This document shows, piece by piece, positions 5,484 through 42,634 of a stretch of 64,000 bases of DNA. The notes beneath the pieces were generated by a model. That model saw nothing but the letters and a program-made list of their open reading frames with translations, had not been told where the DNA came from and did not search any database. The translations under genes and the position numbers were made by a program. The number at the start of each line of letters is the position of its first letter. Positions within the stretch are counted from its first letter, which is position 1. The stretch is taken from positions 37,138,001 to 37,202,000 of the forward strand of contig NC_042999.1 of NCBI RefSeq assembly GCF_006345805.1, read 5' to 3'. The stretch comes from Octopus sinensis. Lineage: Eukaryota.

Positions 5484-6230
5484 ATGGAAGAGTTACTGAA
5501 AGCAGTTGTAAAACAACAAGAGCAGCAGCAACTACAGAAGTTAACAGAATTGTTACTGCAGTCGAGAAATACGACAGAATCATTTGCAGTGCAGCAGATG
5601 GTGTTGCAAATTCCTTCGAAGAATTTCACTACAATCCGGATGAAGGAACTACTTTTGCTGCATATTACAGACGATACGAAGACATTTTCCGAGAGGAATG
5701 CAAGGGATAGTCTAGTGAAAGGAAGTTAAGGCTCCTTTTGCCAAAGCTTGCTCCTCCGGAACACGAAAGTTTTTATAACTTCTATTTTGCCGAGAAAGCC
5801 CGCGGAATTGTGTTTTGATAAAACGATAAATATTTTGACTAATATTTTTAGCGAGAAAAGTTCGTAGTTTAACATTCGATGGGAATGTTTAAATTTAAAG
5901 AAAAACGAGTCCTATGATTTTGTAACATATGCCGGTATGGTTAATAAGGCTTGCGAAAGGTTTAAGCTGGAAGAATTAACGCCAGATATGTTCAAGTGAC
6001 TAATATTCGTTAAAGGGCTAGTGGCAACGGAAGACGCGGAAATTAGAAAAAAAAAAAGAATACTATCAAAGTTGAATCAAGATGTGAAACTCACTTTGCA
6101 GAAAGTGGCTGAGGAATGCCAACAAATAATAAACCTTCGAGATGATACAAGAAAGATAAAAGACAAGAATAATAATGTACAAATGTGTAAAGAAAGTACA
6201 GAAAGAAGGAAAAATTTGAATTCAAAACGG
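5484..6230 (+). pseudogene. Degenerate gag of the LTR element
   Basis: MEELLKAVVKQQEQQQLQKL..., continuing after a frameshift as EEFHYNPDEGTTFAAYYRRYEDIF; stops and frameshifts present. Confidence 0.7.
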
Positions 6231-6234
6231 CGCT

Positions 6235-7157
6235 ATGGCAGCAAAGGCGTCCCCAGTGCAGATTCAGCCGTGGCCCAAAACGGATTCGGCATGGTCTAGA
6301 CTACATATGAATTTCGCAGGACCAATAAATGGCTCTCATTATATCATTGTGGTGGATAGCTATTCCAAATGGCCTGAAGTGTGTAAATGTTCAAGGCCAA
6401 CCACAAGTGTGACTATTGACTTCTTGGAAGATCTGTTCGCTCGCTATGGAGTGCCAGATACGATCGTGTCAGATAATGGTACACAATTCACGGCGAAGGA
6501 GTTCGAAAGATTCTGTAAGTCGGTTGAGATGAAGCATGTGTTAACTCTGTCATACCATCCAAGGTCAAATGGGTTAGCGGAAAGATTCGCCGACACATTC
6601 AAGAGAGCTTTAAGAAAGACCAGACGGGAAACCCTTGAAGATACAAATATGACAAAGTTTTTGCAGGTGTATAGAATAACACCGAATCCAAATGCAGAGT
6701 CGGGTAGGTCACCCGCAGATTTGATGTTATCCAGAAAAATTCGTTCTAGTTTTGACAAATGGTTGCCGAGCAGGAAACAGAAAATAGAAAATTCGTGGGG
6801 AGGGGAACGAAAATTTTTAACACAGGTGACAAAGTGTATTTTAAAATATATAGTAACGGAAAACAGGACTGGGAATAAGGAAGTACAACTGGACGTCTGG
6901 GTAACGTGATGTACATGGTAAAAGGACCAAAATATGAACACAGAAGGCATTTTAAACCAATTTTAAAAAAAGATATACAAAAAAAAACAAGAGAGGCGAG
7001 AAGAACCAATGGATTTATGGTATGATTTGTTCGAGGTCCCAGAACCACAAGCAAAAGCAGAACCGAAATGTAGGTCGAACAAGAAGAGAAAACCTACAGA
7101 AATGATGGAAATTAATACTAAGAGAAAAATATATGCCAGTTTCTCACCGAGGAAATA
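6235..7157 (+). pseudogene. Retroviral-type integrase core (rve) of the LTR element
   Basis: WSRLHMNFAGP...IVVDSYSKWPEV...GVPDTIVSDNGTQF...YHPRSNGLAERF. The first catalytic D reads N and the C-terminus is frameshifted. Confidence 0.9.
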
Positions 7158-36657: not shown

Positions 36658-36711
<54 letters not shown>

Positions 36712-36732
36712 TGATGATGATGATAATAATAA

Positions 36733-37100
36733 TGAGGTGAGTTGGTAGAAACGTGAGCACGCCGGGCGAAATGCCTAGCGCTACGTTCTGAGTTTAAATT
36801 CCGCCGAGGTCGACTTTGCCTTTCATCCTTTCGGGGTCGATAAATTAAGTACCAGTTACGCTCTGGGGTCGATATAATCGACTTAATCCGTTTGTCTGTC
36901 CTTGTTTGTCCTCTCTGTGTTTAGCCCCTTGTGGGTAGTAAAGAATAGGTATTTCGTAGTTCAAATTCCACCGAGGTCGACTTTGCCTTCCATCCTTTCG
37001 GGGGTTGATAAATTAAGTACCAGTTGCGTACTGGGGTGGATCTAATCGACTGTCTCCCTCTCCAAAATTTCGGGCCTTGTTCCCTGACTAGAAAAGAATA
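36733..37100 (+). mobile_element. SINE family D with duplicated body and two different tails
   Basis: Head plus body, then a second gttcaaattcc..cctttcgggg unit ending in gggccttgt..ctagaaaag. Confidence 0.85.
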
Positions 37101-37622
37101 ATAATAATCCTTTTTACTATAGACACAAGGCTAGAAATTTGGGAAGGGGACAGTCGATTACATCGAGCCCCTCAGTACTCAGAAATGTAACCGCACGTGG
37201 GCTGTTGGTGATTTTCCCACCTTCTTCCTTCTTTCCCTTTTGACTTTCCTGCTTTTCCTGTTTTCACGAAGAGCTATGCGCTAAACGTAAAATAACAACT
37301 CTCTTCTTTCTCCGAGCGTCGTATCGATACATTGCTTGTGCAAAGTCCTTATGCTTGTTTGTGTTTTACTTTTTTTCTCTGTTTATTTTTCTTTGAATTG
37401 ACTATTTACTGCACGCTCACACGTACACCCTCGTCCTTCCGACTGTTTTGGTGTACCTGATTCATGGATCTTTCTTTACCATTGGGTTACATCACCTTAT
37501 TCATTCGTAGTACGCTATTTCCGCACCTGTGATTGTGAATATATATATATATATATATATGTTTGTTTTTTTTTGTTTTTGTTTTTCCAGTTTCAGCTCT
37601 TGAGCTGTGGGGTCGATATAAT

Positions 37623-37942
37623 CGAATTATTATTGCTATATATAATAATATAATAATATGATGATGATGATGATAATAATAATGAGGTGAGTTGGCAGAA
37701 ACGTGAGCACGCCGGCGAAATGCCTAGCGCTACGTTCTGAGTTTAAATTCCGCCGAGGTCGACTTTGCCTTTCTCCTTTCGGGGTCGAAATGATAAAGGC
37801 AAAGTCGACCTCGGCGGAATTTAAACTCAGACGTAGGCTAGCATTTCGCCCGGCGTGCTCACGTTTCTGCCAACTCACCTCATGTTATTATCATCATCAT
37901 CATCATTATTATTATTATTATTATATATAGCAATAATAATTC
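37623..37942. repeat. Fold-back of a SINE D head with its flanks
   Basis: Left and right halves are reverse complements around ~37775-37795. Confidence 0.85.
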
Positions 37943-38143
37943 TCTAAATGAGATATAGACAGTGACTGCTCCATAATATAAGGGATATTAGCCAACTGAA
38001 TATGGCTAGGGACAGGGCAGGGTGGTGGGGGTGTCACTGTTGCATTTAGCCCCAGGCGAACATCAACGTCACCAGATAGGCCGACGCCATCACGGCGTCC
38101 TCTATCTTGCAAAGGGAGATCATTCACCAAGAAGCGGATACCA

Positions 38144-38189
38144 CACACGGACCTAGGTTTCAAGGTGTATTGCCTATTATCAACGTGTG
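38144..38189 (-). ncRNA. Minimal type I hammerhead ribozyme, U3-A8 variant
   Basis: CACACG UUGAUAA U AGG CAAUACA CCU U GAAA C CUAG GUC CGUGUG: 6-bp stem I, 3-bp stem II, palindromic stem III, GUC site. Confidence 0.75.
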
Positions 38190-38499
38190 GTAGGCATCGC
38201 TTCTCGACGAACGACCAACCGTGCAAGATATATATAAAGATTTTCAAGTAAATACATTTACTGATTTCGAAAATCTGTTCGACAGCAATAATAATTCTCT
38301 AAATGAGATATAGACAGTGACTGCTCCATAATATAAGGGATATTAGCCAACTGTATATTATGGAGCAGTCACTGTCTATATCTCATTTAAAGAATTATTA
38401 TTGCTGTCGAACAGATTTTCGAAATCAGTAAATGTATTTACTTGAAAATCTTTATATATATCTTGCACGGTTGGTCGTTCGTCGAGAAGCGATGCCTAC

Positions 38500-38545
38500 C
38501 ACACGTTGATAATAGGCAATACACCTTGAAACCTAGGTCCGTGTG
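38500..38545 (+). ncRNA. Minimal type I hammerhead ribozyme, U3-A8 variant
   Basis: Identical inverted copy; predicted cleavage after C38539. Confidence 0.75.
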
Positions 38546-39253
38546 TGGTATCCGCTTCTTGGTGAATGATCTCCCTTTGCAAGATAGAGGACGCCGTGAT
38601 GGCGTCGGCCTATCTGGTGACGTTGATGTTCGCCTGGGGCTAAATGCAACAGTGACACCCCCACCACCCTGCCCTGTCCCTAGCCATATTCAGTTGGCTA
38701 ATATCCCTTATATTATATATATATATAAATTAAATTAGAGATAAAACCACTATTAGGCAAATCAAACAGTGAAAAACATAAACCAAAACATAAAAATAAA
38801 TTAATATAATATACAATTAATTAATATAATTAATATAATATACAAAATATATAAAATATAATATTTAAAATTTAAAAAATATAAAATCAAATTATCTAAA
38901 TTTAAAATTTTTGATTTATATTTATAAATTTTTATATTTTTTTATATTTTTAAAATTTAAAATTTATAAATTTTTAAACTTTATTTTTTTAATATTTATA
39001 TTTATTTATTTATTTTTCTAATATAACTATCAAAATGGTATTAAAAAGTTTAATATAATATAATAAGTAAAACCACTACGTACGTTTCATGGCCATAACC
39101 CAATTTATATTTATACTGTGAAATTTGATTTAATCCTAAATCTAATTTTTCCCTGTAAGTTTGGATTTACTTCCTAATATTATATATATATATATATTAT
39201 ATATATATATTATATATATATTATATATATATATATATTATATATATATATAT

Positions 39254-39808: not shown

Positions 39809-39982
39809 GGCGGCTCCGGCAGAAGGTAATGGCAAACGTCTGCTGACTCTTTCGCCACAACTCTTTCCTCCTGCATCTTGCAGCTCACCTCTGACGGACC
39901 GGCGTCCCGACCAGTGGGGAACCTATACGCCAAGGAAACCTGGAAACCGGCCCTTATGAGCCAGGCGTGGCTCGAGAAGGAA
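39809..39982 (+). mobile_element. SINE family B2-like 3' part
   Basis: ggctccggcag...ggaaaccggccc..atgag; inverted twin at ~41200-41440. Confidence 0.7.
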
Positions 39983-41199
39983 CAAACTATCAGTCGTGTA
40001 AGAAATTTCCCGTTAAGATTTCTTCAGGCAGAGAATCAAATAATAGGAAAGTTTTTACATGTTGGATAAACACGTACAATTTTGTGGTTCCTATTAGCAA
40101 ATGAAACACGTGTAATGGTGAATCAGTAATACCAAAAAAGTAGAGGGAGAGGGATAGTCGATTACATCAGCCCCACTGCTTAACAGGCACTTTTTTTTAT
40201 CGACCCTGAACTAATGAAAGGCAAAATCGACCTCGGTGGAATTTGAATGAGAACGTAAACCCAGAAGAAGTACCCCTGTAAATGTAAACGTGGGAGAAGT
40301 GCCGTTCGCACCCTGTATATATATGTATGTATATGTATATATATATATGAATATGTGTGTTGAGTGTATGCTTGCATTTTTATGCATATATACATGCTTT
40401 CGTTACACGAAAATGTCACTGATACTCACCACTTATATACTGTTTATTACAGTTTGGCACTTGGATGATATCTCATATTCATTTCCCGATGAATTCTATT
40501 TATTAAACGCAAATAATTAATTTTAAAAAAGCCGTATCAATGCATTTTAAAAATCACTTTCTTTATTCAATATTTCGGTCAACATCCTTTATCCATGAAG
40601 TCAAGGAATTAAACAAATTGAATTTAAAAAATAAACAAATCAAGAAGAAAAAAAATGAAATCGCTCGAAGCGCGAATGAAAAATGCCTGATACATATTCA
40701 TCAGTTAATGCCTGTACAGTGCAGATTCAATGAAGTTGGTGTCAGACATGATTTCAGTGTGCGTAATGTTTATGAAAAGATTCGGAGATACTGGATCTTA
40801 AAAACCTTCAGGGTTTTCATATGCCTGCTATGTGGGTTTCATACCGTGCATCCATGCAAGAAAATGAAAACACAGTCTGCTTGATAAATAAGGACCTTTG
40901 TACAGAAGCTGAGAGTGGTTGTTTAGAAACAGTATAACCACAGTTAAGTTCTATGGAATTCTGCTTCGGTTATATGAGACTCGACGAAAGACTTGCGGAG
41001 TAACTGAAGTTTGTTCCTTAGGATAAGCAAATGTGGCAGAGTTATGTATCCGTTTGTTTGGAAAAACGCACGAGTAGAAAGATATACAGTTAGATAGATA
41101 TACAAAAACATATTTATCCAACACGTAAAAACTTTCCTATTATTTGATTCTCTGCCTGAAGAAATCTTAACAGGAAATTTCTTACACGACTGATAGTTT

Positions 41200-41440
41200 G
41201 TTCCTTCTCGAGCCACGCCTGGCTCATAAGGGCCGGTTTCCAGGTTTCCTTGGCGTATAGGTTCCCCACCTGGTCGGGACGCCGGTCCGTCAGAGGTGAG
41301 CTGCAAGATGCAGGAGGAAAGAGTGAGAGAAAGTTGTGGCAAAAGAGTCAGCAGAAGTTTGCCATTACCTTCTGCCGGAGCCGCGTGGAGCTTAGGTGTT
41401 TTCGCTCATAAACACACATCACCCGGTCTGAGATTCGTAC
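41200..41440 (-). mobile_element. SINE family B2-like
   Basis: Shares the B head/body motif gagaaagttgtggc...ccggagcc.cgtggagc. Confidence 0.7.
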
Positions 41441-41871: not shown

Positions 41872-42634
41872 ACTGATTTCAAATTTTGGCACAAGGCCAT
41901 CAATTTCCGAGGAAGAGCTAAGTCAATCACGTCAACCTAGTGCTCAACTGGTACTTATTTTATCGATCCGTCGGCGAAATTTGAACTCAGGACGTAAAGA
42001 TGGGCCAAATGCTGCTAAGTGTTTCACCCGGCGTGCTAGCGATTTTACCAGCTCACCGTCTTGTAGATCTTTAATATTGCTTTCAAATTTTGGCGCAAGG
42101 CCAGGAATTTTGGGGGAGGGTGCTAGTCGGTTACATCGACTCCAGTGTTCAACTGGTACTTAATTTATCGAACCCTGAATAGATGAAAGGCGATGGAATT
42201 TGAACCCAGAACATGTAGACAGACGAAATACTGCTAAACATTTTGCCCGGCGTGCTAACGATAACCAACTCGCCGCATTCTTTTCTACTCTAAGCACAAG
42301 GCCCGAAATTTTTGGGGGAGTGGGGGGGGGGGGAAGTTGATTAGATCGATCCCCAGTACGCAACTGGTACTTAATTTATCGACTCCGAAAGGATGAAAGG
42401 CAAAGTCGACCTCGGCGGAATTTGAACTCAGAACGTAAAGACACATAATACCGCGAAATGCTTGGTGGTATTTCGTCTGTCTTTACGTTCTGAATTCCAA
42501 TTCCGTCGAGGTAGACTTTGCCTTTCATCCTTTCGGAGTCGATAAATTAAGTACCAGTTGCGTACTGGGGGTCGATCTAATCGACTGCCCCCACTCCCCC
42601 AAACATTTCGGGCCTTGTGCCTAGAGTAGAAAAG
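41872..42634. mobile_element. Cluster of four SINE D copies (three minus, one plus)
   Basis: Copies at ~41872-42060, 42077-42275 and 42278-42445 (minus) and 42452-42634 (plus). Confidence 0.8.

Follow-up and report, generated by a model that had tools for sequence, protein, structure and literature searches.

The element lies at 37929-38716 of the window (the whole 64-kb stretch of octopus DNA that was analysed) and is formed by two arms placed back to back and facing outward, with one hammerhead motif per arm on opposite strands. Unit positions are numbered q1-355 on the ribozyme-carrying strand (q1 = window position 38283, q355 = 37929). The long arm (37929-38353, minus strand, which is the sense strand of the element for this arm, ending at 37929) comprises q286-355 (70 nt) and the full 355-nt unit (q1-355), and terminates at the tail end q355; the short inverted arm (38354-38716, plus strand) comprises q304-355 and q1-311, and terminates at q311 without a tail. 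The 44-nt tail (q312-355; 37929-37972, minus strand) is present in the long arm only and, by analogy with PMC11167929, where the tail of a Penelope-like element (PLE) is the interval between two reverse transcriptase (RT) start sites that are alike on both strands, likely represents the same interval. Sequence comparison recovered the layout given in the preliminary description (a 355-bp monomer, a 70-bp restart and a 363-bp near-perfect inverted copy): a direct repeat, 37929-38003 / 38284-38358, with a spacing of 355 and 99% identity, of which 38284-38353 (70 nt) is the true restart of the 355-nt unit; and the inverted arms 37973-38335 / 38354-38716, of 363 nt each, with a single mismatch at 38299. 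The target is TA-rich in the left flank (37919-37928) and (TA)n in the right flank (38717-38726).

The type I hammerhead motif of the plus strand (38500-38545) has stem I CACACG/CGUGUG, stem II AGG/CCU and a U3-A8 pair (U3 = 38506, A8 = 38511), with A9 at 38512 followed by an extra U, G12 at 38528 and C17 at 38539. Its mirror, also U3-A8, lies on the minus strand at 38144-38189 with predicted cleavage after 38150, so that the hammerhead initially read in each arm is present on both strands. The stem III palindrome ACCUAGGU (38531-38538, plus strand) is predicted to form an 8-bp helix joining two copies. The core residues U4 G5 A6, A9, G12 A13 A14, A15.1-U16.1 and H17 are all present in the unit, and are also kept in families recovered without any core pattern; the G10.1-C11.1 pair, which many but not all hammerheads have at the base of stem II, is here replaced by an A-U flanked by unpaired U's. 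No Rfam hammerhead family matched at E ≤ 10, and the only matches were hairpin-driven miRNA/sRNA families below their gathering scores. Since the two hammerheads are on opposite strands, any one transcript of 37929-38716 carries just one; on its own this copy would be unable to free a monomer in cis, and a transcript across it would fold into a 363-bp hairpin.

No PLE coding sequence was detected in the 64-kb window, in agreement with the absence of an RT near the element noted at the outset. The sole recognisable retroelement frame in the window is an integrase core fragment (6220-6909; Pfam rve, E 2e-15), probably left over from an LTR retroelement. The left flank of the element (about 37604-37942) is a second palindrome, formed by the last 14 nt of the element (37624-37637) and about 150 nt of flanking repeat, mirrored; another copy of this repeat lies at 36690-36840, and the palindrome is preceded by a short stretch resembling 36860-36885. 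It may reflect either template switching during insertion or a local assembly fault. Further inverted repeats, at 39810-40075 / 41108-41384 (162 nt at 98%, with 60- and 58-nt neighbours) and 42322-42599 (122 nt at 93%), are unrelated to the hammerhead unit.

When the monomer was searched against the 2.72-Gb genome and the best 40 of 1360 candidates were scored, 134 pieces with identities of 92-100% were obtained, distributed over many contigs and at least 40 loci; the exact U3-A8 motif gave 233 genome matches against one for the reversed control; the motif is therefore not due to chance. In a sample of 27 distinct loci chosen by overall similarity (30 retrieved, three duplicates removed), with a mean distance between loci of 3.0%, U3-A8 was found in 54/54 core-spanning pieces. 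U3-A8 is consequently the state of the family, and the possibility that a single copy had randomly decayed from the usual core fails. The unit (355 nt; related units of about 340-362 nt) is non-coding, has a GC content of 44.8% and carries one type I hammerhead, within the limits given for non-LTR retrozymes (170-400 nt, GC under 45%, one type I hammerhead). A coding role was considered and rejected, the open frame being put down to chance: a frame of 131 codons runs around the circularised youngest unit, only 42-117 codons are open in all sister families, and the frame is also shorter in indel-bearing copies, except for one 351-nt copy open throughout. Units are arranged head to tail in arrays of up to seven without an ORF between them, and two complete hammerheads on the same strand at unit spacing occur in 6 of the 27 young loci, 37929-38716 not being among them. 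The unit is a dispersed, young, non-autonomous family with a hammerhead motif, and the retrozyme-like family proposed in the preliminary description is supported. Other observations on these loci were: an array with up to six ribozymes (L158); an entire two-armed insertion duplicated in tandem with 928-nt spacing (L004/L005, G000:C14:56147236-56149065); and a TATA-like run at q46-57 (38227-38238), about 80 nt upstream of the cleavage site, which is kept in families A, B and C and is a possible promoter element.

In the young set, which favours loci holding a full unit, 22 of the 27 loci are two-armed and outward-facing, and each of the 22 pairs a q355 end with a q311 end. The wider set of 105 loci, drawn from all families through similarity or motif searches, includes 55 two-armed ones, of which 45 combine the two kinds of end, three are q355/q355, none is q311/q311 and seven are unclassified. 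The combination of one q355 and one q311 end in 45 of the 48 classifiable two-armed loci (P = 1.3e-10 against an expectation of 1/2, P = 9e-6 against 2/3) suggests that two priming events are coordinated in vivo. The two fixed 3' ends are 44 nt apart (tail of 42-44 nt allowing for TA overlap), and a TA-rich flank is present at 115 of the 144 fixed ends of the 105 loci; one superfamily copy (L154) lies within a (TAA)n tract, not (TA)n. Direct duplications were found at 7/55 two-armed loci (two of the seven of low complexity), compared with 54/2970 mismatched control pairs; clear non-microsatellite duplications of 12-16 nt are those of L010, L084, L124, L157 and L160, whose flanks are not pure TA.

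The arms overlap at their junction by 0-6 nt in most young loci, and their 5' breakpoints are scattered along the unit, with only 1/50 at q130-140, around the cleavage site. All arms are 5'-truncated and most loci hold 1-3 units, but arms extend past the cleavage site, frequently exceed a single unit and reach lengths of 1152 nt; given that a cleaved linear monomer permits only 221 nt from q355, these longer arms point to a template that was circular, multimeric or re-primed. Divergence is 1.1% between arms within a locus, 0.9% between tandem units and 1.0% (median) to the nearest other locus, with an all-loci mean of 3.0%, and these values fit, though they do not establish, the copying of both arms from one source. 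PLE insertions consist of partly tandem copies accompanied by a 5'-truncated copy in inverse orientation, and their tail of 30-40 bp is mostly confined to one end (Craig 2021); these traits are found here, together with the AT-rich/(TA)n target.

Homologous sister families sharing this layout were found by pattern searches and from a loose end in public contigs: family B, older, C3-G8, with the same stem III as the young family (70 exact matches); family C, U3·G8, with stem III ACUAUAGU (238 matches to a motif outside the ribozyme); and family D, C3-G8, with stem III ACUCGAGU. A 362-nt subfamily of the young family is also U3·G8. A relaxed pattern, leaving positions 3, 7 and 8 and the stem III tetramer free, gave 1,844 genome matches and none in the control. 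The first 100 of these 1,844, counted by hand, all on contig C1 and several from shared loci, comprise 43 C3-G8, 36 U3·G8, 21 U3-A8 and no C3-A8. The constant rule thus appears to be that C3 is accompanied by G8, the C3-A8 exceptions, outside these 100, being single older family B copies (L069, L106). A lone C3U change strongly slows hammerheads. In a tree of 34 of the 81 monomers, picked to cover the families, with midpoint root and trait columns kept, C3 and U3 copies are split at one branch (99/98), bar one stray U3 copy, and at least four G/A changes at position 8 are required on the U3 side. The U3-A8 pair, initially taken as a compensatory double change, is not borne out as one step: a one-step mutation from C3-G8 to U3-A8 is ruled out by the tree, which separates the steps, and by the large U3·G8 families, and U3-A8 would thus have arisen via U3·G8, or flips with it.

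Stem III tetramers among the same first 100 of 1,844 matches are UCGA (41), UAUA (20), CUAG (11), CUGG (11), CAUG (6), UGCA (4), UCGG (3), CGCG (2), UGCG (1) and UACA (1); 99 of the 100 are self-complementary (84 perfect palindromes of six kinds and 15 with G·U) and one is not, in support of selection on a palindromic stem III. In an alignment of 22 copies, which are chosen and related, so that covariation counts are neither independent events nor probabilities, 98.7% of 308 cells are paired, with double-sided changes in 8 of 14 pairs; slid control structures reach a pairing of only 25-49%. Stem I is 97.7% paired with double changes at 3/6 pairs, stem II is 100% paired with 2/3, and stem III covaries as well. 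Many of the loci were selected by patterns that fix part of the hammerhead core. Compensatory changes span about 30% divergence, and more helices with double changes occur across the aligned 305 nt of the unit, one of them enclosing the q311 site. A palindromic loop would be useless to a monomeric ribozyme, so that nothing speaks more strongly for selection of the dimer than the palindrome series; together with the distribution of the 3-8 pairs, it constitutes good evidence of selection for a dimeric hammerhead fold.

The octopus genome holds young PLE families with intact RT and GIY-YIG ORFs. They were sampled at 30 and then 20 further loci from a Pfam GIY-YIG scan, in which 150 of 5029 candidates were scored, and at 20 loci of a second PLE family. 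In one young family (L144, G000:C1:207474000-207480500, and L145) the 781-aa RT/GIY-YIG frame is intact and the 3' region long, the hammerhead is U3-A8 and the target is TA; L144 also has an overlapping 479-aa frame upstream. This family is a candidate partner of the unit. A second young PLE ORF is of 775 aa, and we take both families to be Neptune-like from their zinc-finger motif. Several PLEs of the genome carry a U3-A8 hammerhead with palindromic stem III, TA ends and tails of roughly 36-40 nt, and U3-A8 is hence ordinary among them. The 70 PLE-ORF loci are few and were retrieved with limited flanks; between the unit and their own repeat regions no DNA homology was detected, and a separate retrozyme copy lies nearby in four of these 70. 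Conversely, when five PLE proteins were compared by tblastn with the 105 element loci, PLE coding sequence was present at four, as separate neighbours judged by their flanks. The apparent unit-PLE links (L069, L126, L082/L166, L016) were rejected as neighbours by the same criterion, mostly lying in TA tracts. Other observations on these PLEs concern the second family sampled, which is abundant and young (L166-L185, frames up to 717 aa; 128 of 31,660 candidates scored) and one member of which has a C3-G8 hammerhead about 0.9 kb past the ORF; a PLE-ORF locus with a nearby unit match (L172); and a weak, unscored resemblance of the tail hairpin of the unit to the tail of the 781-aa family.

The monomer has a predicted fold of -116.7 kcal/mol (z = -4.85 compared to 100 shuffles). 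Two isolated 65-nt ribozymes are predicted to co-fold into the dimeric form. In the monomer and six natural tandem arrays the predicted stem III probability is at most 0.03, within or between copies, and the core is mispaired; the model thus predicts a ribozyme mostly off in natural tandems. Contigs of the young family and its sisters are present in four runs guessed to be RNA (three studies, two species labels), and one 390-nt contig wrapping round the unit, in each of two such runs (two studies), is equally compatible with a circle, a multimer or DNA. Such contigs are at most a hint of expression; among the runs listed for the family none is recorded as RNA, which speaks neither for nor against it. 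Every circle junction also exists in tandem DNA, so that a back-junction search cannot reveal a circle. Contig depth in the guessed-RNA runs peaks over the part of the unit common to family C (U3·G8; window 37989-38063), a peak that cannot rank expression, and family C letters appear as loose ends on these contigs.

The young copies are dispersed and sit in (TA)n targets, their outward-facing arms are 5'-truncated and end at two fixed 3' sites, and the hammerhead helices covary. These observations lead to the reading that we consider probable from the genomic sequences: the non-coding family would be a non-autonomous PLE (a non-LTR retrozyme), copied in trans by a PLE RT/GIY-YIG protein. Loci holding at least two same-strand units would be transcribed; neighbouring hammerheads, paired through their stem III palindromes, would undergo slow cleavage, probably aided by protein, and the unit-length RNA would be ligated to circles. 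A PLE protein, an enzyme reported to nick and extend both strands of AT-rich DNA (PMC11167929), would nick both strands of the target about 12 nt apart, and each nick would prime cDNA at one of the two fixed RNA sites, q355 and q311. The two cDNAs would travel a variable distance round the circle, or along an uncut multimer, and be joined at short overlaps, with a tandem-plus-inverted insertion tailed at one end as the outcome. Dimer cleavage through a palindromic stem III is described for such ribozymes (PMC6765202, a review), and slow, assisted dimeric cleavage is the likely source of circles. The predicted off-fold, the presence of two same-strand ribozymes in just 6/27 loci and the 36/100 U3·G8 motifs weigh against this reading, as do the lack of DNA shared with any of the 70 PLE-ORF loci sampled, the published failure of most Xenopus retrozyme dimers to cleave and the published PLE insertion in vitro that does not require cleavage.

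The same observations leave some room for a PLE-dependent element whose template is an uncut linear multimer, in which the hammerhead serves structure or recognition, or works as a slow switch, and circles are not required; we regard this as possible, if rather doubtful. It would account for the off-fold in natural tandems, for the many U3·G8 copies and for breakpoints that avoid the cleavage site (1/50 at q130-140), and it agrees with the in vitro insertion of PAc, for which cleavage is dispensable, the RNA used is mainly uncut and insertion persists with catalytic mutants (PMC11167929). The catalytic residues are nevertheless kept in families C and D, found without the core pattern; C3-A8 is absent among the first 100 of 1,844 motif matches; and linear templates on their own should shorten the arrays each round, given 5'-truncated arms of typically 1-3 units. 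The 390-nt wrap-round contigs of two guessed-RNA runs fit linear multimer and circle alike. A more speculative proposal, which we hold to be unlikely, combines RNA circles with obligate twin priming by a dimeric PLE protein: one cDNA would start per fixed site on a paired template, one per nicked strand, and the stem III palindrome would be a family-specific dimerisation code akin to a retroviral dimer-initiation signal, drifted through at least six perfect palindromes, with catalysis relaxed to the point that wobble-core U3·G8 lineages spread no less than canonical ones. If so, the main value of the hammerhead would lie in pairing templates, not only in cutting. The low divergence between arms (1.1%, against 3.0% between loci) counts against the trans version of this proposal, as it fits templates from one source.

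It is improbable that an ordinary autonomous PLE outside our sample left the repeats behind as truncated ends (solo pLTRs). Such hammerheads are carried by pLTRs (PMC4209133), autonomous PLEs with U3-A8 motifs exist in the octopus genome and the PLE-ORF sample is small (70 loci versus thousands of candidates), but units lie head to tail in arrays of up to seven with no intervening ORF, and the PLE coding sequence at just 4/105 loci belongs, as judged by the flanks, to separate neighbours, not to read-through from the unit. We give very little credence to DNA-level spread of a satellite-like repeat, or to fold-back assembly artefacts, with a vestigial ribozyme: the near-perfect palindromes of the arms and the second palindrome in the left flank would suit either, whereas fixed yet differing arm ends, variable junctions, target duplications, dispersal over many contigs and compensatory changes across about 30% divergence do not.

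The PLE-dependent retrozyme reading can be compared with published systems. The octopus family resembles animal non-LTR retrozymes in its non-coding tandem units of about 340-362 nt with a type I hammerhead (PMC7229834; bioRxiv 10.64898/2026.07.22.740005); the mussel units, with circular RNAs, are of 350-390 nt, and in an axolotl retrozyme the base of stem II is occupied by a U·U (PMC7229834). Eight of nine Xenopus retrozyme dimers did not cleave (bioRxiv 10.64898/2026.07.22.740005). It differs from them in the PLE tail, 5' inversion, TA target and duplications, which the main texts of these papers do not describe, and, compared to the retrozymes with circles, in being known from DNA and contigs, with no pLTR-homologous partner in 70 PLE-ORF loci. 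With PLEs and pLTR hammerheads (PMC4209133; PMC11167929; Craig 2021) it shares the partial tandems, the inverted 5'-truncated copy, the one-end tail, the AT-rich/(TA)n target, the extra nucleotide after A9, the palindromic stem III and the U3-A8 variant; unlike them, it has no RT/EN ORF, a tail of 44 nt instead of 30-40, a stem II of just 3 bp without G10.1-C11.1, and large U3·G8 lineages. Non-autonomous Chlamys PLEs (e.g. MRC1) mostly have 3' sequence in common with autonomous families, and their clades are reported to lack canonical hammerheads (Craig 2021), whereas the octopus family has a hammerhead and no homologous partner detected in the 70 PLE-ORF loci.

The novelty initially claimed for the locus stands in part. 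No published description of the family or of U3·G8 was found in the papers searched on octopus/cephalopod, hammerhead, retrozyme and Penelope. Natural hammerheads with U3-A8 covariation were already in print (PMC3088659), including about 1,300 PLE-type motifs of Schistosoma (PMC4209133), as were animal retrozymes and their mobilisation by, or origin from, PLEs (PMC7229834; bioRxiv 10.64898/2026.07.22.740005). What sets the family apart is that a non-coding hammerhead RNA bears direct PLE integration marks; the rule that a two-armed locus has one q355 and one q311 end, and the natural series of core variants, also go beyond the routine. The mobilising enzyme of animal retrozymes and the circularity of its template are proposed, not demonstrated, in the cited text of these papers. 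The copies of the family are young and point to two exact priming sites, PLEs with intact ORFs that target TA occur in the same octopus genome, and the family is a clean test system for retrozyme mobilisation, to which the published in vitro PLE assay is directly applicable. The 3-8 pair (C-G, U·G, U-A) and the dimer helix vary across the superfamily in the manner of a natural mutational series. A CUGANGA-type descriptor is in actual use (PMC8557442), and surveys based on it would, as anticipated in the preliminary description, miss over half of the motifs sampled here (57/100 among the first 100 of 1,844).
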